From: Elusimicrobia bacterium UBA5214 | GTDB taxonomy: Bacteria; Elusimicrobiota; UBA5214 | Direction of reading: 5' to 3' | NCBI GenBank assembly: GCA_002412545.1 | Contig: DHVG01000001.1 | Coordinates: forward strand, 206,766 to 270,765 | Length of the DNA: 64,000 bases | Shown here: piece after piece, positions 4,480-53,215 of the stretch | Layout: every line of letters starts with the position of its first letter | Numbering within the stretch: the stretch's first letter is position 1 | The notes under the pieces: model-generated | What the model saw: only the letters and a program-made list of their open reading frames with translations | Database searches by the model: none | Told to the model about the DNA's origin: nothing | Made by a program: the position numbers and the translations under genes

Positions 4480-5394
4480 ATGGGCACTTTTATTGGTATT
4501 CTCATCGGTTTAGGTTTGACTGTTTATTCAGTGTATGCAAGTTGGGAAATTGCGGCATCGACCAAACAAACGCTTACTCTTGCTGCAGCATTCATTAATA
4601 TACCGGGTTTTCTATTAGTAATCGGTGGTGTGATTGCAGCGACCCTTGTATCTTTTCCTCTAAAGGATGTCACGGAAAGTTTTGTTTCTTTTTTCCGAGT
4701 ATTTTTCCGAAAAGAACATAGTTTTATTAAGCGAATAAATGATATTGCTGAAACTTCAGCACTTTATACTAAAAATGGTATTTCGGCATTAGAAGAAAAA
4801 GTGAAAAATAGTGAGATGTCTTTTTATCGTGATGCGTTAGAAATGTTTGTCAATGGTTACAAAAAAGAAGAAATAGTAAAAGTTTGCGAAGATATGATAA
4901 ACGCAAGATATGAACGTGAAGTTATTCAAGCAGATGTATTTAAAGTTATTGCACGAAGTGCCCCTGCTTTTGGTATGATTGGCACGGTTGTTGGTATGAT
5001 TGGTATGTTTGGGAAACTTGCAGAAAAATTCCGTTTAGAAGCAACTATTGGTGAAGCGACTACCGCAGCGGGGTCTGATGCTGCTGGGTTACAATTTACC
5101 ATATTTTTTCTAATGATGGTTGCTCTGACGACAACTTTTTATGGTTTGATTATTGCGAATTTGGTATTTGGTCCAATGGCAAACAAAATTGTCAATCGCA
5201 GTGATTCTACCAGAGCATACTTGTATATGACTCTTAAGGGGGTATTACTCATTTGTGATAAGAGGCACCCCCTATACATCAAAGATATTCTCATCGGGTA
5301 TTTACCCCCAAAATACAGAAAAGAGTTATACAAAGAATTGGAAAAAGAAACATCGCCAGCACGAGTGCCTACACCAAAACCAGCTAAGAAATAA
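4480..5394 (+). CDS. motA: MotA/PomA-family proton-channel stator subunit (4 TM helices, large TM2-TM3 cytoplasmic loop)
   Basis: Two TM helices, then an about 100-aa cytoplasmic loop, then TM3/TM4 carrying the MotA motif APAFGMIGTVVGMIGMF. This topology differs from ExbB/TolQ (3 TM). Confidence 0.7.
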   Translation: MGTFIGILIGLGLTVYSVYASWEIAASTKQTLTLAAAFINIPGFLLVIGGVIAATLVSFPLKDVTESFVSFFRVFFRKEHSFIKRINDIAETSALYTKNGISALEEKVKNSEMSFYRDALEMFVNGYKKEEIVKVCEDMINARYEREVIQADVFKVIARSAPAFGMIGTVVGMIGMFGKLAEKFRLEATIGEATTAAGSDAAGLQFTIFFLMMVALTTTFYGLIIANLVFGPMANKIVNRSDSTRAYLYMTLKGVLLICDKRHPLYIKDILIGYLPPKYRKELYKELEKETSPARVPTPKPAKK

Positions 5395-44929: not shown

Positions 44930-46645
44930 TTAGATAAGTGCATATTTTGTTCGGGCAATTGAATATAACCTTTTCCAAACGAGACGATTAAATAATACAA
45001 CCATTAAAGCCATCACTAAAACACTACCAGAAAGGAGAGAAAAGTCCCCTTTGGATGTAGATAGAGTAATCAATGAACCTAATCCAGTTGCTGAAATCGT
45101 TCGTCCTTTAAAGTGGATATATTCCGCAACAATACTGGCATTCCATGCTCCGCCCATCGCAGTAACCCAACCGGTAACTAAATAAGGAAAAATCGTCGGA
45201 AGAATTACTCTTCTCCAGAATTTTGTTTTCTCTAAATGGTAAATTTTTCCTACTTCCACCAAATCGGTCGGAATAGTTGTTGCTCCGGCAATCGTATTAA
45301 ACAAAATATACCATTGTGTTCCAAGCATCATTAAAATTACTGCACCAAATTGTAAACTGATTCCGAAATAATTCATTATTACTATTACCAGAGGAAAAAG
45401 CATTGGTGCCGGGAAAGAAGCTGCAATTTGTGTTACCGGTTGCAGTATTTTTGATAAACGAGGATTCATCCCAATGGCTACACCGGTCGGTATTGCCCAG
45501 ATTGAACCGATAAATAGAGATAATAAAGTACGCAACAAGGTTAAAGAACCTCTTCCTAAGATAGTAGACCAATCGGCAAAAGAAACTTTGCTTAAAAGTG
45601 AAAACAAATGAATTATTCCATCAAGAATAAAAAATGTAACCAAAATAAGTAAAGTCCAACGGAAAATCTTACTCAAAGAAGTAACTTTTCTCTGGTTTAC
45701 TTTCCTCTGGGAAAGTATTTCTTTTATCTTAAGCAAAACCTTCTTATTTAGATAATCTACAAGTAAACTAATAATTTTTGATTCTTGAAATAAATCAAGA
45801 ATAAACGAGTTAGAAATTACTGCTGACTTTGTCTCTTCAAATTTAAACTTCTGTGACCAGACGACTAATGGACGCCAGAGTAAACGGTCAACACCGATAA
45901 TCATCAGAATCATTGTTAAAATTGCATAAAACATCGCCTGGATATTACCTTGTTCAATGGCTACACTCATATAAGAACCAATACCGGGCAGACGAAAATC
46001 TTTATTCCCGAGAACGAATGCTTCACAGATAGTCAAAAAAAACCAACCACCAGCCATTGACATCATACTATTCCAAATCAGACCAATTGATGCATAAGGT
46101 AGTTCCAGTCGCAATAATTTTTCTAACCGTCCAAATTTCCATACTTTAACTGTATCAATAAGGTCCTGAGGAATTGATTTTAAAGAAGAATAAAAACTAA
46201 AAGTCATATTCCAGACCTGCCCACTGAAAATCATCAAAATACAAGCTAATTCTAATCCAATATTCCAATGCGGGAAAATTGAAATAAAGGAGATAACTAA
46301 CCCGGGTAAAAAACCAAGCACTGGAATACTTTGTAAAATATCTAATATTGGAATCATTATTTTTTCCGCCTTTTTGTTATGAGCAGCGACATAGCCATAA
46401 ATAATCGTAAAAATTAAAGAAAGAAAATATGCCACAAATCCTCGGGATAAAGAAAACAAGGTATATTTCGGTAATGACCATGGACTTAAACTTATCTCAA
46501 CTAATGGTTGAACCGGTGCCCCCCATCTTTGTGCAATTTTAAGTAATGCCCAAAAAGCACCGAAAATAAAAATAAAAATAATTAAATCGGCTAAAAAAAA
46601 AGTTTTCTCTAATTTAACCTGTGATTTGATTAAACTCATAAACAA
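44930..46645 (-). CDS. ABC transporter permease with two fused BPD-type transmembrane domains (NitT/TauT-like)
   Basis: 571 aa, about 12 TM helices in two halves. Adjacent to the ATPase. No substrate-binding protein gene nearby. Confidence 0.65.
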   Translation of the reverse strand: MFMSLIKSQVKLEKTFFLADLIIFIFIFGAFWALLKIAQRWGAPVQPLVEISLSPWSLPKYTLFSLSRGFVAYFLSLIFTIIYGYVAAHNKKAEKIMIPILDILQSIPVLGFLPGLVISFISIFPHWNIGLELACILMIFSGQVWNMTFSFYSSLKSIPQDLIDTVKVWKFGRLEKLLRLELPYASIGLIWNSMMSMAGGWFFLTICEAFVLGNKDFRLPGIGSYMSVAIEQGNIQAMFYAILTMILMIIGVDRLLWRPLVVWSQKFKFEETKSAVISNSFILDLFQESKIISLLVDYLNKKVLLKIKEILSQRKVNQRKVTSLSKIFRWTLLILVTFFILDGIIHLFSLLSKVSFADWSTILGRGSLTLLRTLLSLFIGSIWAIPTGVAIGMNPRLSKILQPVTQIAASFPAPMLFPLVIVIMNYFGISLQFGAVILMMLGTQWYILFNTIAGATTIPTDLVEVGKIYHLEKTKFWRRVILPTIFPYLVTGWVTAMGGAWNASIVAEYIHFKGRTISATGLGSLITLSTSKGDFSLLSGSVLVMALMVVLFNRLVWKRLYSIARTKYALI

Positions 46646-46767
46646 CTATTTTAATAAACCTTAAGGAAAAAGTCAAAAATTTTGTTATTTTAAATCAGGC
46701 AGGAATGAATTGTAGCCGAGCCTTAAGGCTCGGCTGAATTATTGAACATTAACAACCGTCCCTAATT

Positions 46768-46797
46768 CTAAAATTGACACGGTTACCGAAGTCAATA
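46768..46797. repeat. Direct repeat copy 1 (CTAAAATTGACACGGTTACCGAAGTCAATA), left flank of the Bro-N fragment
   Basis: 27 of 29 nt identical to copy 2 at 47110-47138. Both copies are followed by TGTCACC-like sequence. Confidence 0.6.
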
Positions 46798-47022
46798 ACA
46801 AAAGGTAACTTCCAATTTCAGTCGGTGACAAAATGTCACCACCTCACTTCCTTCTTCTCTTAATCTTTGAGCAAGTTTATTCCAATATTTTCTAGCCGTA
46901 TAATCATCAACTTGGTCGGTTAATACTCGCACTACATCCACAACCGAAAACCACCATTCATTGTTAAATAGTGATCTTCTGATTCTTTTGCCTTTGAATA
47001 ATACAATTTTAGTTGTTTCCAT
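46792..47022 (-). pseudogene. Truncated Bro-N/KilA-N-like (phage antirepressor N-terminal domain) gene fragment, 76 aa
   Basis: The stretch KGKRIRRSLFNNEWWFSVVDVVRVLTDQ fits the Bro-N pattern (IR...E.WF.a.DVa.aL). The ORF is too short for a complete domain and is isolated between direct repeats. Confidence 0.45.
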
Positions 47023-47109
47023 AATTTACTCCTATCAAATTTAAGATTTAATCAGTTTGTAATCCAAATTTCAAGGCATTGGGGAGCCGATTTCTCACCC
47101 GATAAATTT

Positions 47110-47138
47110 GAAAATTGGCACGGTTACCAAAGTCAATA
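47110..47138. repeat. Direct repeat copy 2 (GAAAATTGGCACGGTTACCAAAGTCAATA), right flank of the Bro-N fragment
   Basis: See copy 1 at 46768-46797. Confidence 0.6.
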
Positions 47139-47208
47139 TGTCACCCTGAACATAAGTGAAGGGTCTCACATTTCTGACCCCATTCCCCTCAAGTTGTGTC
47201 TTATTCTT

Positions 47209-48567
47209 TTAATAATCAATATTAAAAAACTTTTTTAAATTTTGTCTTGCAGTTTCACTTCCTAAATCTGCCGCTTTTTGCCAGTCACTAATGCTTAATT
47301 TATTTAATCCTTTTTTATAATAAGCGACTCCACGATTATAGTAGGCATCTTCATGTTGTGGATATAAATCTATAGCTTTATTGTAATCTTTTATTGCTTC
47401 ATCATATAACTCTTTATCTATATAAATAGAAGCACGGTCATTATAAACAAAACGAAGTACCCACTCACTAGCTTCAAAAACTTCATCTTCTGGAAATAAA
47501 ACTAAGACTGCAGTAGTAATATCAAAATTACCTGTCGTAATTTTCGCTCTTTCAGTCCCGGAAGATGATAATACCCAGAAGTATGTTGTAATTTCCGATA
47601 ATCCGAAGTAATTGTAATTTGGGATTGAAGCTAATTGAATCGCTTCCGTATAATCTTGTATTGCTTTGTCATATAATCCTAATTTTCTATAAATGCCCCC
47701 GCGAATTCGATGTGCATTTGCATTTCTAGGTTTTAGTTCAATCCATTTTGTATAGTCGCTTATTGCCATGTAATTCAATTCCTTATTGGCATAAGCATCA
47801 CCGCGGTTCTCATAGGCATATGCATATTCGGGATTTACTTTTATTGCCTTTGTATAGTCTTCTATTGCTTCGTCATCCAATTTTTTATAATAATGATAAA
47901 TAAACCCACGGGCAATGTATGCCTTTGCATATTTTGAGTCCAATTCGATTGCTTTTGTAAAATATTCTATTGCTTTATCAAAAAGATGTAAATAATATAC
48001 TTCTTCACCTTTAATAAACCATTGGTATGCGGTTAGGTTTTCGGTCGGATTAACTTTTATTTCTTCTTTTTCTTTTTCACCCAAAACAATTTTCAAACTA
48101 TCCAATAAATTAAACGCAATTTCATCTTGAAGTTTAAAAATATCGGATATATTACCAGTTATTTCTGCTGTGTCAATTACTTCCCGGGTTTCCACATCCA
48201 CAAATCTTGCCGTAACTCTTAGTTTATCTCCCATAACCTGAAAAGAACCAAAAACTAACACATCGGCGCCATACATTTTGCCTATTTCAACTGCGGTTTT
48301 TTCATCAACGGCACCTGAATACTGAAACTTTATCTCTTCTAATATTTTTGACAGATATTCTCTTTCAAGTACGGTTATTTCGCTGACTTTAACTATTTTT
48401 GTAGTTAAGGTTTCTGAAAATCCCGCACCTATCCAGTTTTTTTCTTTATCTTCGGTTATATTTTGAAAAGGGATTACTGCAATATTTTTTGTCTGATTAG
48501 ACCCCTTCGGGGATAATACGGGGCAAGTAACAAACAAGATAATAATGGCTAGAAATATTTTTTTCAT
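47209..48567 (-). CDS. Lipoprotein with CsgG/FlgP/LpoB-like N-domain and multiple TPR repeats
   Basis: Lipobox LFVTC. N-domain NIAVIPFQNITEDKEKNWIGAGFSETLTTKIV...VLEREYLSKILEEIKFQYSGAVDEKTAVEIGKMYGADVLVFGS. C-terminal TPR units (AYIARGFIY, AYENRGDAY, AYYNRGVAY). Confidence 0.6.
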   Translation of the reverse strand: MKKIFLAIIILFVTCPVLSPKGSNQTKNIAVIPFQNITEDKEKNWIGAGFSETLTTKIVKVSEITVLEREYLSKILEEIKFQYSGAVDEKTAVEIGKMYGADVLVFGSFQVMGDKLRVTARFVDVETREVIDTAEITGNISDIFKLQDEIAFNLLDSLKIVLGEKEKEEIKVNPTENLTAYQWFIKGEEVYYLHLFDKAIEYFTKAIELDSKYAKAYIARGFIYHYYKKLDDEAIEDYTKAIKVNPEYAYAYENRGDAYANKELNYMAISDYTKWIELKPRNANAHRIRGGIYRKLGLYDKAIQDYTEAIQLASIPNYNYFGLSEITTYFWVLSSSGTERAKITTGNFDITTAVLVLFPEDEVFEASEWVLRFVYNDRASIYIDKELYDEAIKDYNKAIDLYPQHEDAYYNRGVAYYKKGLNKLSISDWQKAADLGSETARQNLKKFFNIDY

Positions 48568-48835
48568 TAAAATTCCTCCAAGGAAAACGGTGTCGGATTT
48601 AAAATTTTCAATCTTTTGTATCTTTGCCAGACTTGATTTCTTAATTTATTTCAACGATATAAATATAAAAACTATTTTATAAATCTAATCGCTACAAACC
48701 ACCGCTTTCAGCGGGGTCTCCGAAATACAAAAACCGACTTGGTGAGTTACATCATATTCTCCGGATTAATCCGCTTTTCCAAACACCTCGTTCAGTCCAT
48801 CAATGGTTTTTTGCATATCAAAGGATTTCTGGGCT

Positions 48836-48958
48836 TCAATTGTCAATACAGGAAACAGTAATATAATAATCTTTCTCAAGAAGCCTTAAAGGGAATCCTG
48901 TCTGTGCAGATGCTCTTTCAAGAATCTTAAGAAATTCCTCTTTATCGTTATGAAGCAT
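48836..48958 (-). pseudogene. abiEii: Truncated AbiEii/AbiGii-family nucleotidyltransferase toxin remnant (40 codons, then stop)
   Basis: Minus-strand ORF MLHNDKEEFLKILERASAQTGFPLRLLEKDYYITVSCIDN* carries the AbiEii N-terminal EKDY(W/Y)(V/I)T signature. Its ATG overlaps the abiEi stop by 11 nt (ATGCTTCATAA). The reading frame collapses after about 40 codons. Confidence 0.5.
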
Positions 48959-49748
48959 TTTCAATTAACATCCATTTTTTATTAACCTTGCCTTTCCTTG
49001 ATTTTGAAGGATAAAGGTTAATCAATGATGTTTTTTTAACCGCCTTCAGCAAAGGCACGAGCTCTTTATCAGGCACCCCTGCACTTTCAAGCACAAAGCC
49101 GATTCTCTTTGCTGTTGCGACATCAGGAAACCTCAGAGCATATCTTTTAAGCTTTCCTGCATCTATTTTCCTATTTTTTATCTGTTCTTTTAATATCTCA
49201 AATGCTTTTTTCATGCCTCCGATGGGGTCAGGAAAATAAACCAGGTCAACAAGAGTTCTCTCCCGGTCACTCACTATCACCCCGGTATCCTTGATTCTGA
49301 TTTTTTTAAGACCATACATCCTTTTCTGGGAAATCTTAACCATTTTAAAACGCATGCTGCCGATTACCTTTTCCCTCTGCAAAGAGGTATTTAGTATGTA
49401 CATCACCTGAAAAATTTGGTCAGTAAAGCCATAGTAGTTATACATAGGTGAATAACCGATGTAATAATTGTCTTTGGGAAAGAAAACTGAAGGAATAAGA
49501 AATTCATTGATATTGCTTCCGGCAGGTCCTGCCTCAAGAGGCGAATAAAGATAAACACCCTTCTTTATCTTTTTCAGGATGCCCTGCCTGTTGAGCCTGA
49601 AAAGTATTTTTTCCCTTGCCTTCTTAGGAAATCTAAAGTATCTGCCAAACTGCTCCAGGGTTACTATCGAAACCTTTTCGTAGGCAAGTCTTGCAATGAC
49701 TTTTTTTTCCCTGGGACTTAAATATTGCATTGTATTATTTTTTACCAT
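48948..49748 (-). CDS. abiEi: AbiEi-family type IV toxin-antitoxin antitoxin / transcriptional regulator (apparently orphaned)
   Basis: N-terminal wHTH-like segment (LSPREKKVIARLAYEKVSIVTLEQFGRYF). Immediately upstream of, and overlapping, an AbiEii-like remnant. The gene is about 45% GC against about 33% in its flanks. Confidence 0.5.
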   Translation of the reverse strand: MVKNNTMQYLSPREKKVIARLAYEKVSIVTLEQFGRYFRFPKKAREKILFRLNRQGILKKIKKGVYLYSPLEAGPAGSNINEFLIPSVFFPKDNYYIGYSPMYNYYGFTDQIFQVMYILNTSLQREKVIGSMRFKMVKISQKRMYGLKKIRIKDTGVIVSDRERTLVDLVYFPDPIGGMKKAFEILKEQIKNRKIDAGKLKRYALRFPDVATAKRIGFVLESAGVPDKELVPLLKAVKKTSLINLYPSKSRKGKVNKKWMLIENAS

Positions 49749-49790
49749 TTTTCCATCTCTCGGAAATATTGTAAATTTCTATACAATATG

Positions 49791-49818
49791 ATTTTACATC
49801 TTTTTAGGCTTTTGTCAA
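49791..49818 (-). promoter_or_regulatory. Putative abiEi promoter on the minus strand (TTGACA, 16-bp spacer, TAAAAT), followed by an ATTGTA...TACAAT inverted repeat (49769-49788)
   Basis: Hexamers read from the reverse complement. The inverted repeat lies between the -10 element and the start codon, consistent with an autoregulatory operator. Confidence 0.35.
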
Positions 49819-49906
49819 GTCAAAAATGCTTGAATGCTCGCACAGTAAGAATCATTCCGCATTACTGTAACTAGTGTAGTGCGTCAAACAGATCTTTACA
49901 TTTGGT

Positions 49907-49980
49907 TGTCATTGCGAGGTCTCTTTTAAGAGACCGTGGCAATCCCATTATGAGATTGCTTCACTTCGTTCGCAATGACA
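49907..49980. mobile_element. MITE-like element copy A (74 bp) with terminal inverted repeats tGTCATTGCGAgg ... cgTTCGCAATGACa, abutting the uvrC stop codon
   Basis: Shares its termini and internal blocks (GGCAATCyCAT.A.GAGATT, GATTGCTTC) with copy B at 51396-51519. Confidence 0.6.
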
Positions 49981-49994
49981 TTTCAGTGTAATCA

Positions 49995-51383
49995 TTAGCC
50001 GGGAGTGACTTTTGCGATAGGCTGAAATTTATCTTTTTTGCGCAGGAGTTTGTGGTAGGAAATAGCGAAGCGGTGGGCTTCGTCACGAATCCGCTGGAGT
50101 AGTTGTAAAGCCGGTGAATTTGCCGGTAAATTAAGAGGTTTACTTTTTTTCGGCAATCCCTCCTTCACTAAAGCTTCCTCTTTCGCCAAGGCTTTAGAGG
50201 ACAAGTCGGAGGGCAGGTAGATTTCTTCTTTTTCTTTAGCTAAAGCGATTATAGGTAGTGTAAGGTGTAAGGTGTTAAGTGTTTCCACTGCGGTAGATAG
50301 ATGTCCTTTACCACCGTCAATGAGAATAAGGTCGGGAAATTTCTCCCCCGCTTCCAGAATTCTTTTGTATCGCCGGGAAAGAACTTCGCTAATCATTTTA
50401 TAATCGTCAATTTTATTTACTGTCTTTATTTTATATCTCCGGTATAAGTTTTTGTTCGGTTCACCTTTTTCAAAAACAACTAAAGAACCTACTGCCTGTT
50501 TACCGGAAATATTGGAAATATCAAACGCTTCAATATGTAAAGGTACATTGGGTAAGGAGAACAACTTTTTCAGTTCGCTTAAACCTTGAGTAATTTTGAT
50601 TTTTTTCGGTAAATCTGTTTCTCGGACTTCTTTAAAATCAATCCGCTCGGGAATATTTTGGATTGCGGAAATCGTATCGCGGATTTTTCTTGCTTCTTCA
50701 AAATCAAGTTTTTTTGAATATTGCTGCATTTGTTTTTCTAAATGCTTAAGTAATTCTTGATGGTTCCCTTCTAAAAAAAGAATAACTTGGTTAACTATTT
50801 CCCGATATTTTTTTTGACTAATTTCACCAAGACAGGGTGCGGGACATTGTTTTATATGATAATAAAGGCAGGAACGCACTTTTTTTTCCGGTATCGGTGT
50901 ATCTTTAGAAAGCGGGTATTTACAGAGACGGAGTGGGAACACCCGCTGTAACCAGCGTAAAGTCCTGCGGGTTTGTCCGACTTCAGTGTAAGGTCCGAAA
51001 TAACGGGCATTTTTTACTCTCCCTTCCCGTTTTCTTGCCAGGAATAAACGCGGAAACTCTTCACCCAAAGTGAGCATTAAATGCGGGTAGGATTTATCGT
51101 CCCGCCAGAGGATATTGTATTTCGGCTGGTATCTTCTAATCAGTTTACTTTCTAAAATTAACGCTTCGGTTTCGGTTTTTGTTACCAAGTAGTCAATTTT
51201 GGCAATTTGCGGGAGCATAATTGCATTTTTTGTAGATTGTTCAATATGTGGGTAAAAATAGGAAGCGACCCGTTTTTTTAGAGAAGTAGCTTTACCGATG
51301 TAGATGATTTGACTGCTGCTATTCTGCATTAAATATACGCCGGGTGCAGAAGGTAAGTTTTTCAGTTTTTCTTTTAGATTCAT
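49995..51383 (-). CDS. uvrC: Excinuclease ABC subunit C lacking the C-terminal (HhH)2 domain (462 aa)
   Basis: N-terminal GIY-YIG domain (APGVYLMQNSSSQIIYIGKATSLKKRV), the UvrBC-interacting region, and the RNase H-like endonuclease domain (IEAFDISNISGKQAVGSLVVF...YRRYKIK, DLILIDGGKGHLS, RDEAHRFAISYH). The ORF ends right at MITE copy A. Carries a GGTGTAA heptamer-repeat insertion at 50256-50284. Confidence 0.8.
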   Translation of the reverse strand: MNLKEKLKNLPSAPGVYLMQNSSSQIIYIGKATSLKKRVASYFYPHIEQSTKNAIMLPQIAKIDYLVTKTETEALILESKLIRRYQPKYNILWRDDKSYPHLMLTLGEEFPRLFLARKREGRVKNARYFGPYTEVGQTRRTLRWLQRVFPLRLCKYPLSKDTPIPEKKVRSCLYYHIKQCPAPCLGEISQKKYREIVNQVILFLEGNHQELLKHLEKQMQQYSKKLDFEEARKIRDTISAIQNIPERIDFKEVRETDLPKKIKITQGLSELKKLFSLPNVPLHIEAFDISNISGKQAVGSLVVFEKGEPNKNLYRRYKIKTVNKIDDYKMISEVLSRRYKRILEAGEKFPDLILIDGGKGHLSTAVETLNTLHLTLPIIALAKEKEEIYLPSDLSSKALAKEEALVKEGLPKKSKPLNLPANSPALQLLQRIRDEAHRFAISYHKLLRKKDKFQPIAKVTPG

Positions 51384-51395
51384 TTAAGCGATGCA

Positions 51396-51519
51396 GTCAT
51401 TGCGAAGCCCGAATGTTCTATTGGGCTGAGGCAATCTCATGAGATTTAAGAGCCTGTTCCGAGCTAAGTGAGGAATCTTGATTTGAGATTGCTTCGTCAT
51501 TTCATTCCTCGCAATGACA
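51396..51519. mobile_element. MITE-like element copy B (124 bp): GTCATTGCGAag ... cCTCGCAATGAC, upstream of uvrC
   Basis: Same terminal inverted repeats and internal conserved blocks as copy A. A solo right-end copy (TTCATTCCTCGCAATGACAC) follows at 51573-51593. Confidence 0.6.
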
Positions 51520-51664
51520 CTTATCGGTAAACTGGTTTATGGTTTACCGGCCTATTCTCTTTCGTTAACTGGTTTCATTCCTCGCAATGACACGATTGCT
51601 ATTATCCGTGCAATCACGATTAATAATCTGTGTAATCTATGTTTTAGAAATCTGCGTAATCTAT

Positions 51665-53215
51665 TTACAGTTCACCGGTTTCTTCTTTTTCGAGGACTGC
51701 GAATAATGTCTTGCTTTCTTCCATTTTCAAGAAATGGGTGAGCAGAAAATAAATAACTACACCGCTGGTAATCGGGATGATTACCGAAAGGAACTTTGAC
51801 CAGGGGAAAAAATGGTAAGCGAGAAGATAGCAGACTATAGCCATAATCAGAGTAGCGAGCAGAGTGCGTTTGACCGTTTCTATTATTCTTCTTAATCCTA
51901 CTTTGCCAATCCGCAGGCGGAGAATAATTAAGAGGATACTGAAATTGACAATTGAAGAAATTGCCGTGGCTAAAGCTAATCCACCGACACCCATTATTTC
52001 CATAAGGATGAGATTGAGGACAACATTTAAACTTAAAGCCAAAACCGCTACTTTTAAGGGTGTTTTTGTATCCTGCAAGGAATAAAAAACTGCAGCGACA
52101 ATTTTTGTCCCGGCATAAGCGAAAGTCCCTAAAGCATAATAGAAGAGTGCCTGACTGGTTAGTTTTGTTGCTTCAGCAGTGAAAGCACCACGCTGGAAAA
52201 GTAAACGCACAATCGGTTCGGCAAGAACCATCAGTCCTACCGAAGCCGGGATGATAATAAAGAATACGGTTCTTAGAGATAAGGAGAGCGTATCTTTTAA
52301 TTCAGTAAAATTCTTTGCACTTACGCTTTTTGCCATCATCGGTAAAGAAACCGTCGCCATTGCGATACCGAAAAGAGCTAACGGGAGTTGCATTAAACGG
52401 TTAGAATAATAAAGTGCAGTTACACTGCCTTCTCTTAGGAACGAACCGCAGAGAGTATCAACAAAGGAATTAATTTGTTCTACGGAAAAACCAATCATTG
52501 CCGGTAACATTAAAAGAAAGATTCTTCTTAAGCCGGGATGACGAAAATTAATCTTAAACCGTAATTGCCAGCCGTGTTTAAAAAGTATTGGTAACTGGTA
52601 GGCAAATTGTCCCAAGCCACCGATTACTACCGCGACGGCTAATCCTTTAATTGGTGAAAGTAGATAACCAGCAATTAGTAAAATATAGATTATTTCGGCA
52701 AAGTCAAGGTAAAGCGGTGATAAGGCGGGAAGAAAAAAGATATGTAAAGCATTCAAAGTTCCTAAAAGTAATGCGGCTAAACAAATTAGAAGTAGGTAAG
52801 GGAACATTATTCGGACCAGAGTAATGGTAAGTTCTAATTTTTTTGGACTGATTTCAAATCCCCAGGCGACAAGTTTAGTAATTTCGGATGCAAAAATTAT
52901 ACCTAAAATAGTTAAGATAGAAAGAATTATAAAGAGTGTCGTAAAAACTGCATTTAATAAGTCCTGAGTTTCTTCTTTACTTTTTGTGTTCAGGTATTCG
53001 GTAAAGACCGGCACAAAGGATGCGGAAAACGCACCTTCACCGAGAAGACGGCGGAAAAGGTTAGGTATGCGGTAGGCGGCATAGAATGCATCGGCAAAAA
53101 GCCCGGCACCAAAAAATTTTGCTACGAACATATCCCGGATATAACCGAAAATCCGGCAAATTAGAATAGCAAAACTAACTTTCCCGAAATATTGGGTAAT
53201 TTTTTTTGTAGACAT
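51665..53215 (-). CDS. murJ: Lipid II flippase MurJ (MviN)
   Basis: 14-TM MOP-superfamily protein. The N-terminus ITQYFGKVSFAILICRIFGYIRDMFVAKFFGAG is typical of MurJ. Confidence 0.85.
   Translation of the reverse strand: MSTKKITQYFGKVSFAILICRIFGYIRDMFVAKFFGAGLFADAFYAAYRIPNLFRRLLGEGAFSASFVPVFTEYLNTKSKEETQDLLNAVFTTLFIILSILTILGIIFASEITKLVAWGFEISPKKLELTITLVRIMFPYLLLICLAALLLGTLNALHIFFLPALSPLYLDFAEIIYILLIAGYLLSPIKGLAVAVVIGGLGQFAYQLPILFKHGWQLRFKINFRHPGLRRIFLLMLPAMIGFSVEQINSFVDTLCGSFLREGSVTALYYSNRLMQLPLALFGIAMATVSLPMMAKSVSAKNFTELKDTLSLSLRTVFFIIIPASVGLMVLAEPIVRLLFQRGAFTAEATKLTSQALFYYALGTFAYAGTKIVAAVFYSLQDTKTPLKVAVLALSLNVVLNLILMEIMGVGGLALATAISSIVNFSILLIILRLRIGKVGLRRIIETVKRTLLATLIMAIVCYLLAYHFFPWSKFLSVIIPITSGVVIYFLLTHFLKMEESKTLFAVLEKEETGEL

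Follow-up and report, generated by a model that had tools for sequence, protein, structure and literature searches.

What has become of the toxin-antitoxin (TA) cassette that an uncultured bacterium, deposited as an Elusimicrobia MAG, carries between uvrC and a gene for a CsgG/TPR lipoprotein, and does anything of it still work? In the NCBI annotation, its 266-aa protein is a 'hypothetical protein' and the toxin pseudogene beside it is unflagged. The DNA examined here is a 64-kb stretch (the window), which belongs to a contig at least 642 kb long. An earlier note had proposed that the locus is a decayed AbiE locus, in which AbiEi with its own promoter stands beside an AbiEii killed by deletion. 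Profile matches, a mapped deletion and intact relatives all bear this out, and we put at about 80% the probability that the locus is the relic of an AbiE (DUF1814-COG5340) TA/abortive-infection cassette whose AbiEi is whole and whose AbiEii toxin has been lost. The AbiE cassette is a known and common two-gene TA/phage-defence system, and its decay here is of an ordinary kind. In intact form, the abiEi-abiEii cassette is compact (~1.75 kb) and carries its own promoter. No further copies of abiEi or abiEii were found within the 64-kb window.

The intact gene abiEi (48948..49748, minus strand) is predicted, from profile matches over its full length, to encode a COG5340-type antitoxin/autorepressor of 266 aa. 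The PADLOC model PDLC02267 matches residues 9-265 on profile positions 1-242 of 252 (E=9.2e-50), 29 additional PADLOC AbiEi models are also matched, and Pfam AbiEi_1 (PF09407) scores 34.6 bits for a cut-off of 22.2, in agreement with the full-length AbiEi described earlier. Pfam AbiEi_4 (PF13338), the profile that had been suggested for the search, aligns to N-terminal residues 20-68 with 14.4 bits (E=0.041), under its cut-off of 25. The NCBIfam model TAA_AbiEi gives 16.7 bits, so far under its cut-off of 150 that the window AbiEi does not qualify as an equivalog under this narrower model. The protein shares 57-80% identity with over 100 others, 260-272 aa long, some of them named AbiEi family antitoxin. 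In AbiEi proteins whose toxin partners are intact, 83 columns reach at least 95% conservation; the window protein departs at one of these, by a conservative I-to-V change, and falls inside the range of the paired proteins themselves (0-6 departures). AbiEi shows no sequence decay.

Structure prediction was less informative. Two AF2 runs, with 34 and 84 sequences, reached pLDDT values of 60 and 64 with a disordered middle; in the model of mean pLDDT 64, residues 63-148 are below 50, and three helices are predicted at residues 12-23, 31-38 and 42-54 (pLDDT 64-88). The top Foldseek match of this poor model in the PDB was Mycobacterium tuberculosis Rv2827c (1ZEL; probability 1.0, E=0.046, TM 0.30 over 101 columns), and the lower-ranked matches were wHTH regulators with E>0.5. 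Searching the PDB sequences with a 34-sequence AbiEi profile returned nothing relevant.

The toxin gene survives in two pieces. The 5' remnant (48854..48958, minus strand) comprises codons 1-35 (MLHNDKEEFLKILERASAQTGFPLRLLEKDYYITV) and was recognised by its homology to the abiEii of the related locus L006, with which it shares 33/35 residues and 85% of nucleotides, and to three PADLOC AbiEii models that match the stub at profile positions 2-40 (E=1e-6 to 3e-5). When the whole window was searched by tblastn, stub residues 1-35 were 94% identical to the N-terminus of a related 294-aa AbiEii (E=2.7e-16). The toxin gene starts with an ATG at 48958, so that it and the end of abiEi share 11 nt, the same geometry as in the intact loci L006 and L010. 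In the list of open reading frames, the stub appears as a 40-aa frame (48836..48958, minus strand) made of the 35 toxin codons, five out-of-frame codons (SCIDN) and a stop, and JGI annotates it as a 40-residue gene (L001, 6791-6913). The 3' remnant (48766..48858, minus strand), located by tblastn to L006, holds codons ~262 to the end (LFPVLTIEAQKSFDMQKTIDGLNEVFGKAD, then the stop) in the +1 frame relative to the stub. It encodes the C-terminal ~30 AbiEii residues and runs to the ancestral stop at 48766; it is 76% identical to residues 262-286 of the L006 AbiEii (E=3e-7, tblastn), and its C-terminus and stop line up with those of intact genes such as L047, which ends in ELNRVFGKTD. A 37-aa open reading frame at 48766..48879 was rejected as a separate small gene, being the frame-shifted abiEii C-terminus. 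The earlier statement that only the first ~40 codons are kept is thus right as to the family of the stub and incomplete as to its extent, as codons 1-35 and a C-terminal part both remain.

Alignment to full-length AbiEii allowed both endpoints of the deletion to be mapped. Window position 48855 aligns by blastn to both nt 104 and nt 787 of the L006 abiEii, placing the junction at 48854..48856 and leaving ~682 nt (codons ~36-261) missing and the rest out of frame, as expected for the toxin inactivation by deletion put forward before. When the junction context was set against five intact abiEii genes, the microhomology amounted to 2 nt at most (TT). Because the original C-terminus and stop are still encoded, the lesion is an internal deletion and no 3' truncation. 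The PF08843 domain, which covers aa 41-248 in relatives, lies wholly inside the deleted segment, as do motifs I/II (G51-G52-x15-D68-x-D70), III (K187-LRAAATR) and IV (R200-DFYD), identified by the published nucleotidyltransferase (NTase) definitions (I/II, hG[GS]x15DhD; III, KLxAaxxR; IV, +DxxD; PMC3985639). With the whole NTase domain deleted, an active toxin from this locus is impossible, and the loss of all four motifs together with PF08843 makes the locus an AbiE relic and no working member of the family. Neither toxicity nor abortive infection would be expected from a locus with this gene content. Inside the toxin remnants, no secondary stops or indels were found, which makes the deletion look recent. 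The deletion also happens to create a near-consensus promoter (TTGTCA-16-TATAAT, 48840-48867) on the plus strand, antisense to abiEi.

The deletion is no assembly artefact. Variants can be collapsed in metagenome assemblies, and both alleles do occur in related populations (L014 and L018 intact, L015 deleted), so that the junction could in principle be a consensus error or a minority allele in a population that really has an intact abiEii. This is very improbable, since JGI, the NCBI MAGs and Logan (two sequencing runs), all independently made, share the junction wherever it is spanned. The identical sequence, deletion included, is present in the JGI copy (L001), one NCBI copy (L002) and two Logan contigs (L003 and L005) at 100% identity, and a second NCBI copy (L004), with 1 mismatch in 5,257 nt, stops within the remnant yet covers the junction. 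The junction itself joins two homologous segments in different frames cleanly, with no Ns and no contig end. Within the abiE region, no differences separate the five public copies, which hold no within-population variation for a dN/dS test.

Related loci show what has been lost. Among metagenome loci of this AbiEi subfamily, 387 were confirmed, in many gene contexts, and 58 related loci could be assessed for a toxin gene. A full-length ~290-aa AbiEii (PF08843) follows abiEi in 51/58 of them, and the PF08843 profile matches two related AbiEii proteins with E=1e-29. In relatives, abiEi is directly upstream of and co-oriented with abiEii, whose start precedes the abiEi stop by 11 nt (by 4 nt in some loci) or, in the most remote loci, follows it by a few nt; the window keeps both ends of the toxin gene in the same position. 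At least 7/58 loci have AbiEi without the toxin, or ~12-15% of related loci, which is not an unbiased rate because the survey was seeded on AbiEi and loci lacking AbiEi were invisible to it. The clearest case is L015: it matches its sister L014 at 99.5% identity through abiEi, and a clean 828-nt deletion in abiEii, with 5-nt microhomology, sets the two apart. L014 and L018 are intact and L015 is deleted, a strain-level polymorphism. In-frame internal deletions of abiEii were found in L032, L058 and L076, a frameshift in L035 and replacements in L086 and L028. The relatives therefore provided the intact pairs that had been sought, though at related loci and not at the same site: in the species collection, the UvrC of the closest genome shares only 47% identity, and no intact pair was found at the window site.

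Upstream of abiEi, the promoter pointed out in the earlier note is present at 49791..49818 on the minus strand, with a -35 element TTGACA (49818..49813), a 16-nt spacer and a -10 element TAAAAT (49796..49791), matching 11/12 consensus positions. Sites as good as this one number five in the 64-kb window, counting both strands. Across 44 distinct homologous upstream regions, the -35 hexamer is (near-)invariant and the -10 varies between TAAAAT, TAAACT, TACAAT and TAGAAT at equal distance. Similarity between loci starts only ~6-10 nt upstream of the -35, which makes the promoter part of the cassette. The inverted-repeat operator candidate mentioned in that note is also there: O1 (ATTGTATAGAAATTTACAAT; 49768..49787, minus strand), a 20-bp palindrome ATTGTA-N8-TACAAT, sits where transcription is expected to start, 3 nt past the -10, and is the sole perfect match in the window to the family consensus ATTGTAT-N5-TTTACRAT. 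Over the 44 loci, its TTGTA and TTTAC(G/A)AT halves are kept and 86% of cells are pairable; variation is one-sided only, and double-sided changes are absent. Such conservation of sequence, with only one-sided change, fits a protein-binding site. Like the promoter, the inverted repeat belongs to the cassette, both being conserved in the 44 upstream regions. S. agalactiae AbiEi and M. tuberculosis Rv2827c repress via inverted repeats in their own promoters (PMC3985639, PMC7319586), and from these two proteins we infer that AbiEi may bind at O1.

A second palindrome, TTTCC-N7-GGAAA (49750..49766, minus strand), lies in the leader directly 5' of the abiEi ATG, its 3' arm overlapping the likely ribosome-binding region. 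Its columns pair in relatives of differing sequence (TTTCC/GGAAA, TTTCT/AGAAA and GTTAY/RTAAC), with double-sided changes in 4/6 pairs and a covariation of 0.297 compared with 0.182 in shuffles (reached in 0/500), although leader sequences are essentially of two types and therefore represent few independent covariation events. It may act as an RNA hairpin or as a DNA operator, which are indistinguishable by sequence. Further downstream, a possible second operator-like site (49729..49748) reads ATGGTA-N8-TACAAT on the minus strand and has one mismatch to the O1 consensus on the plus strand. Lying 39 nt from O1, it overlaps the start codon of abiEi, and the AAAAATAATACAA stretch under it shows at least 90% nucleotide conservation across loci; its use as an AbiEi site is speculative. 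Outside the 5' region of abiEi itself, the 64-kb window holds no operator-like sites. A search of Rfam at E up to 1 over 46500-51700 gave no known RNA for the leader or the flanks, and its sole match, an lncRNA inside the abiEi coding region, was judged spurious.

The locus had been considered compositionally foreign, with abiEi at ~45% GC and flanks at ~33%. We measured 37.8% for abiEi, 32.6% for the stub and 36.0% for the window, with flanks of 33.3% (46000-48835) and 39.4% (49749-52500). Nothing comes near 45%, a local GC or skew anomaly is absent, and compositional foreignness was rejected. The proposed horizontal acquisition loses its GC argument. Cassettes 57-80% identical occupy unrelated gene neighbourhoods, in MAGs named as different phyla, and the distant relative UBA4817 has kept the MurJ-UvrC...MGMT synteny with abiE absent. 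It is these varied contexts and the abiE-free syntenic relative that mark the cassette as accessory. Target-site duplications or flanking repeats were not found at the ends of the window cassette.

AbiE of Lactococcus lactis and Streptococcus agalactiae was first classed as a type IV TA/abortive-infection system (Dy et al. 2014, PMC3985639); a 2026 preprint moved it to type VII (bioRxiv 10.64898/2026.01.19.700257). The window subfamily resembles these systems in being bicistronic with the antitoxin first and the reading frames overlapping, in its COG5340-type antitoxin with an AbiEi domain at the C-terminus and a predicted DNA-binding part at the N-terminus, in the DUF1814/PF08843 NTase toxin with motifs I-IV (in the intact relatives), and in the inverted repeats in the promoter, suited to autorepression. 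It differs in that the window AbiEi has no detectable pairwise or profile similarity to the solved S. agalactiae AbiEi. The S. agalactiae operator consists of two 23-bp repeats spanning the -35 and +1, unlike the 20-bp palindrome just past the -10 and the covarying palindrome before the ATG found here. With its toxin deleted, the window locus, unlike these systems, cannot work as a TA or Abi module. Rv2827c, the AbiEi-family antitoxin of the DUF1814 toxin Rv2826c (PDB 1ZEL; Beck et al. 2020, PMC7319586), is not only the best structural match of the AF2 model but also an autorepressor that binds inverted repeats, and its promoter has more than one set of them, comparable to the possible O1 plus second site in the window. 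Identity across the aligned columns is only 18%, and the poor AF2 model makes the match a marginal one. Rv2827c also has a live toxin as its partner and is required for growth, whereas the window AbiEi is left without a toxin.

A single illegitimate-recombination event cut ~682 nt from abiEii and left codon 35 joined, out of frame, to codon ~262. Transcription of abiEi probably continues from its own sigma-70-type promoter, as judged from the DNA, and by analogy with characterised AbiEi proteins the putative N-terminal winged-helix domain probably represses that promoter via ATTGTA-N8-TACAAT, possibly with the second site at the start codon; we infer expression, DNA binding and antitoxin activity alike. 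The antitoxin domain would be left without a cognate target inside the 64-kb window. The undamaged antitoxin and toxin remnants suggest that the deletion is fairly recent, and the orphan abiEi would most simply be a remnant yet to erode. Loss of the toxin first is harmless and loss of the antitoxin first is harmful, so decay is expected to take the toxin before the antitoxin. Well-sampled species often carry orphan antitoxins, as in a population survey of Klebsiella pneumoniae (PMC7192599), where the antitoxin likewise sits beside a disrupted toxin as a common end state of chromosomal TA loci and the same question, remnant or anti-addiction gene, arises. That survey dealt with 50-150-aa antitoxins of types II and IV in one species complex, whereas the antitoxin of the window is a two-domain AbiEi of 266 aa, its lineage is uncultured and the deletion beside it is mapped exactly.

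Selection could instead have kept the orphan, as an anti-addiction or immunity gene against AbiEii brought in by plasmids, phages or cassettes of this widespread family, or as a domesticated transcription factor with control over other genes; we consider this unlikely. The open reading frame, promoter and operator are whole although the toxin is destroyed, but the dead toxin remnants are equally undecayed, so the integrity of AbiEi needs no selection and a recent deletion fits as well. The abundance and mobility of the cassette family in like environments (the 387 loci) make exposure to a cognate toxin plausible, toxin-less AbiEi arose independently in at least seven of the assessable loci, and an anti-addiction role of orphan antitoxins has been raised (PMC7192599). 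Work cited in the 2026 preprint reports that S. suis AbiEi acts on SezAT, and loss of an AbiEi homologue reportedly gives phenotypes in M. huakuii (PMC8436566). On the other hand, AbiEi proteins beside degraded toxins have a median of 2 changes at conserved positions against 0.5 for paired ones (one-sided Mann-Whitney p=0.017, uncorrected for phylogeny), which hints at relaxed constraint, and a domesticated regulator finds no operator-like sites in the window beyond its own 5' region. It is quite doubtful, too, that the recurrent abiEii deletions (the window, L015, L032, L058 and L076) represent a route of disarming, with the orphan AbiEi selected as an immunity gene or repressor and the antisense promoter at the junction perhaps adding control.

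The 40-aa stub peptide might itself be functional, coupled to abiEi translation and serving as a partner or co-regulator of AbiEi. Five independent deletions keep codons 1-12 (L015), 1-19 (L032), 1-19 (L058), 1-25 (L086) and 1-35 (window), no part of the remnant is better conserved than the N-terminal 35 residues (94% identity), and the S. agalactiae AbiEi joins AbiEii in a stable complex (bioRxiv 10.64898/2026.01.19.700257). Yet the kept lengths vary between loci, and no evidence places an AbiEi-binding surface in residues 1-35. Furthermore, 11 nt of the toxin gene suffice for a whole abiEi and the survey was blind to deletions entering abiEi, so a short 5' piece is expected from ascertainment alone. 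We regard a functional stub as highly improbable and the remnant yet to erode as the simplest account of the locus.

Taken alone, the result is of little weight, beyond correcting the annotation of AbiEi and of the toxin pseudogene; in censuses of defence systems, the locus is to be scored as non-functional. It does provide a base-pair-resolved case of the death of a chromosomal TA/Abi cassette, toxin first, via a short-microhomology internal deletion. For a large uncharacterised environmental AbiE subfamily, it defines a conserved promoter/operator/leader layout, distinct from the paradigms known from S. agalactiae and M. tuberculosis. By a first estimate from the AbiEi-seeded survey, about one cassette of this kind in seven to eight is toxin-less with AbiEi kept. 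The surveyed set, with its matched intact/deleted strain pair L014/L015, could support a selection test on orphan AbiEi genes. Finally, a consensus scan placed a weak terminator-like hairpin, CCGCTGAAAGCGG, 3' of the toxin remnant (48702..48714, minus strand); it is not conserved in related loci, the sequences of which diverge right after the toxin stop.

The 266-aa ORF at 48948..49748 on the minus strand, found in the ORF listing and annotated as 'hypothetical protein' at NCBI (DHV62_04510), encodes an AbiEi, the antitoxin and repressor of the AbiE cassette. It is matched end to end by the PADLOC AbiEi model PDLC02267 (E=9.2e-50), as well as by 29 other PADLOC AbiEi models, and the Pfam C-terminal domain PF09407 scores 34.6 bits, above its cut-off of 22.2. 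The Pfam N-terminal wHTH model AbiEi_4 gave a weak match below cut-off (E=0.041), and the threshold of the narrower NCBIfam equivalog model was not reached. The databases contain more than 100 proteins, 260-272 aa long, with 57-80% identity to this AbiEi. Their source MAGs bear labels such as Nitrospirota, Omnitrophota, Planctomycetota and Patescibacteria, and several of the proteins carry the name 'type IV toxin-antitoxin system AbiEi family antitoxin' or 'predicted transcriptional regulator of viral defense system'. No solved structure related to the window AbiEi was detectable by sequence search. The AF2 models were mediocre (pLDDT 60 and 64); in a fold search of the PDB, the better one came closest to the mycobacterial AbiEi homologue Rv2827c (1ZEL), a marginal hit (E=0.046).

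A short ORF of 40 residues runs from the ATG at 48958 to 48836 on the minus strand, overlapping the abiEi stop by 11 nt; its start was set by homologues, and JGI called the same gene. In two close relatives, L006 and L010, the gene directly downstream of abiEi has the same 11-nt overlap, encodes 291-294 aa and matches PF08843 (AbiEii) over residues 41-248 (E~1e-29). The L006 AbiEii, aligned to the window as protein and DNA, falls into two collinear pieces. The 5' piece, L006 residues 1-35, lies at 48958..48854 (minus strand; 33/35 residues and 85% of nucleotides identical). The 3' piece, residues 262-286, lies in the next reading frame at 48858..48784 (minus strand; 76% identity) and continues to a stop at 48766 aligned with the ancestral stop. 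Window position 48855 aligns to both nt 104 and nt 787 of the L006 gene, which puts the loss at about 682 nt and leaves the two pieces joined in different frames. Microhomology between the two sides of the deletion is no more than a TT dinucleotide.

The earlier note had read this region as a decayed AbiE locus with an intact abiEi, and the profile matches to the 266-aa protein and to the relatives' downstream gene, the searches it had proposed, bear this out. It had described the toxin as truncated to a stub of about 40 codons; inactivation with retention of the 5' end holds, but the alignment to a full-length AbiEii places the deletion endpoint at 48855, inside the gene, and the remnants reach 48766. 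The lost segment includes the polymerase-beta motif pair G51-G52-x15-D68-x-D70, motif III (K187-LRAAATR) and motif IV (R200-DFYD), and with them everything needed for activity; in the characterised AbiE system, mutating these NTase motifs abolished toxicity (PMC3985639). No additional stops or indels were found in either remnant. A 37-aa ORF at 48766..48879 was discarded, being simply the frame-shifted abiEii C-terminus. A sigma-70-type promoter near consensus (TTGTCA-16-TATAAT, 11/12) lies across the junction at 48840-48867 on the plus strand, antisense into abiEi. The 3' remnant supplies its -35 and the 5' remnant its -10, which means that the deletion created this promoter; it is among only five equally good sites in the 64-kb window and could be due to chance.

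The source is an uncultured bacterium deposited as an Elusimicrobia MAG. Five public assemblies cover all or part of the abiE locus; four are identical to the window across the shared abiE region and the fifth has one mismatch in 5,257 nt, so the abiEii deletion is not an assembly accident. These five copies offer no population variation to use at abiE. The gene order is LeuS-LptE-HolA-S20-MurJ-UvrC-[abiE locus]-CsgG/TPR lipoprotein-76-aa ORF-ABC transporter-MGMT-like-UbiA. The sole difference between the window and one public copy (L002, the NCBI MAG GCA_002400355.1) is an indel in the CsgG/TPR lipoprotein gene (47209..48567) at 47293-47326, where 34 nt of the window are matched by 5 nt in L002 and the called product shrinks from 452 aa to 416 aa; it lies in the TPR repeat region and reflects a difference either between strains or between assemblies. 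The 76-aa ORF (46792-47022, minus strand), two genes from the abiE relic, aligns to no more than positions 5-71 of profile phrog_15286, which has 274 positions (E=1.9e-11), and gives weak Bro-N and AbiJ_NTD4 hints; it seems to be a further truncated gene of phage or mobile-element origin.

Toxin loss was also found in related loci. Of 80 metagenome loci collected with an AbiEi profile, 58 had enough downstream sequence to judge; full-length AbiEii was present in 51 and absent in seven, in a survey that, being seeded on AbiEi, is blind to the opposite outcome, loss of the antitoxin. The toxin is reduced to 12 codons in L015, has lost about residues 20-188 in frame in L032 and about 43 residues in frame in L076, is frameshifted in L035, has its interior replaced by other genes in L086 and its C-terminus replaced past residue 230 in L028, and is gone from L046. 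Three shorter contigs also carry damaged toxins: L058 (in-frame loss of about residues 20-157), L042 and L074 (premature ends). The clearest case is L015: over the upstream flank plus abiEi it shares 99.5% identity with L014, and what separates the two is a clean 828-nt deletion within the L015 abiEii, with 5 nt of microhomology (L014 2620-3447; L015 3818-3822). Both represent the same genomic site in sediment metagenomes, with abiEi-abiEii intact in L014, and the pair is a natural comparison of this site before and after the toxin was lost. Internal toxin deletion with the antitoxin kept is thus a recurrent decay route in this AbiE subfamily. The in-frame internal deletions in L032 (3791-4141), L058 (2346-2519) and L076 (690-1433) are independent; in L032 and L058 the break follows residue ~19 and takes out the catalytic core, leaving the N- and C-terminal toxin parts as open reading frames, and L032 also lacks the promoter -35 region.

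The abiE promoter recognised in the earlier note, TTGACA-16-TAAAAT (49818..49791, minus strand), matches 11/12 consensus positions, and only five sites as good occur in the 128 kb of two-stranded sequence. In an alignment of 44 distinct upstream regions from related loci, similarity started a few bases 5' of the -35 and extended to the ATG, so the promoter is part of the cassette. The conserved pattern is CTTGACAAAG-N-GTAAAAT-N4-(T)ATTGTAT-N5-TTTAC(G/A)AT, then a short palindrome and the start codon. The first palindrome, ATTGTA-N8-TACAAT (O1; 49787..49768, minus strand), is conserved in sequence without compensatory changes, which looks like the pattern of a protein operator, and we consider it a candidate AbiEi site. 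It covers the expected transcription start, which would be a natural position for autorepression; Rv2827c and characterised AbiEi proteins repress their operons via promoter inverted repeats (PMC3985639, PMC7319586). For the second palindrome, TTTCC-N7-GGAAA (49766..49750, minus strand), the same columns pair in relatives with different sequences, with double-sided changes in 4/6 pairs and a covariation score reached by none of 500 shuffles. This covariation, from only about two sequence types, is suggestive of either an RNA hairpin at the ribosome-binding site or a co-evolving DNA site. An operator-pattern search returned a third, O1-like site overlapping the abiEi start codon (49748..49729) and no others in the window. 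A 24-nt imperfect direct repeat (71% identity; 49704-49727 and 49748-49771) joins the abiEi leader (CAATATTTCC...GGAAAAA) with the beginning of the coding sequence (CAATATTTAAG...GGGAAAAA); together with the start-codon site, it suggests that a regulatory unit was duplicated about 39-44 bp apart.

Erosion of AbiEi was assessed at 83 alignment columns whose conservation reaches 95% or more in a set of 40 distinct AbiEi that have an intact toxin partner. The window AbiEi deviates at one (I to V), within the range of 0 to 6 for paired AbiEi, and so appears free of erosion. The abiEii remnants are as clean, so a recent deletion accounts for both, and our preferred reading is a recently disarmed cassette. 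AbiEi would probably still be expressed and self-repressing, with no cognate toxin in the sequence examined. That it serves as an anti-addiction gene or domesticated regulator seems to us unlikely. Anti-addiction is a standard hypothesis for orphan antitoxins (PMC7192599), and regulation of other loci by AbiEi homologues is reported in the Discussion of a preprint (bioRxiv 10.64898/2026.01.19.700257). AbiEi beside degraded toxins (0, 1, 1, 2, 2, 4, 6 and 6 deviations) deviate somewhat more than paired ones (one-sided Mann-Whitney p=0.017, eight values, uncorrected for phylogeny), which hints at relaxed constraint.

In its ancestral form the cassette belongs to the AbiE / DUF1814-COG5340 family, which was first classed as type IV TA and as an abortive-infection system (PMC3985639). 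In a 2026 preprint AbiE is argued to be type VII, the antitoxin inducing auto-phosphorylation of the toxin, a tRNA-modifying pyrimidine NTase (bioRxiv 10.64898/2026.01.19.700257). The window locus lacks the intact NTase toxin that defines AbiE and should be classed as a relic of such a system, consisting of an orphan abiEi and an abiEii pseudogene. The environmental subfamily differs from studied AbiE in operator sequence and position, and its AbiEi from solved AbiEi proteins in having no detectable sequence similarity, but these differences are not categorically new.

The cassette is accessory, given that near-identical architectures occur in unrelated neighbourhoods (sortases and PIN toxins, GmrSD, DUF488, CHAT proteins), that homology has sharp limits, the promoter on one side and the toxin stop on the other, and that a distant relative, UBA4817 (with UvrC 47% identical, the closest available), keeps MurJ-UvrC with an MGMT-like gene 0.8 kb downstream and no abiE. 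The UvrC and MGMT-like anchors are about 6.4 kb apart in the window, with abiE among the genes in between. The compositionally foreign abiEi of the earlier note (45% against 33% GC) was an error, the gene having 37.8% GC against 36.0% in the window and 33-39% in the flanks. No flanking repeat or target-site duplication was found at the cassette in the window. In a related locus without the usual promoter-proximal operator (L049), direct repeats of ~85 nt bracket the whole cassette (2862-2946, 4646-4730, 4734-4818); each holds two palindromes and resembles attC or REP-type repeats, which may be a clue to cassette movement. Palindromic structured repeat elements without an Rfam match fill both uvrC-flanking intergenic regions of the window (49896-49991, 51390-51595), with the pattern TCATTGCGA ... 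GCAATC ... GATTGC ... TCGCAATGA. A 9-mer of this element occurs five times there and nowhere else in the window (chance expectation 0.4). Two contigs from Logan stop inside the element, at 49918, which suggests that it is a multi-copy genomic repeat.
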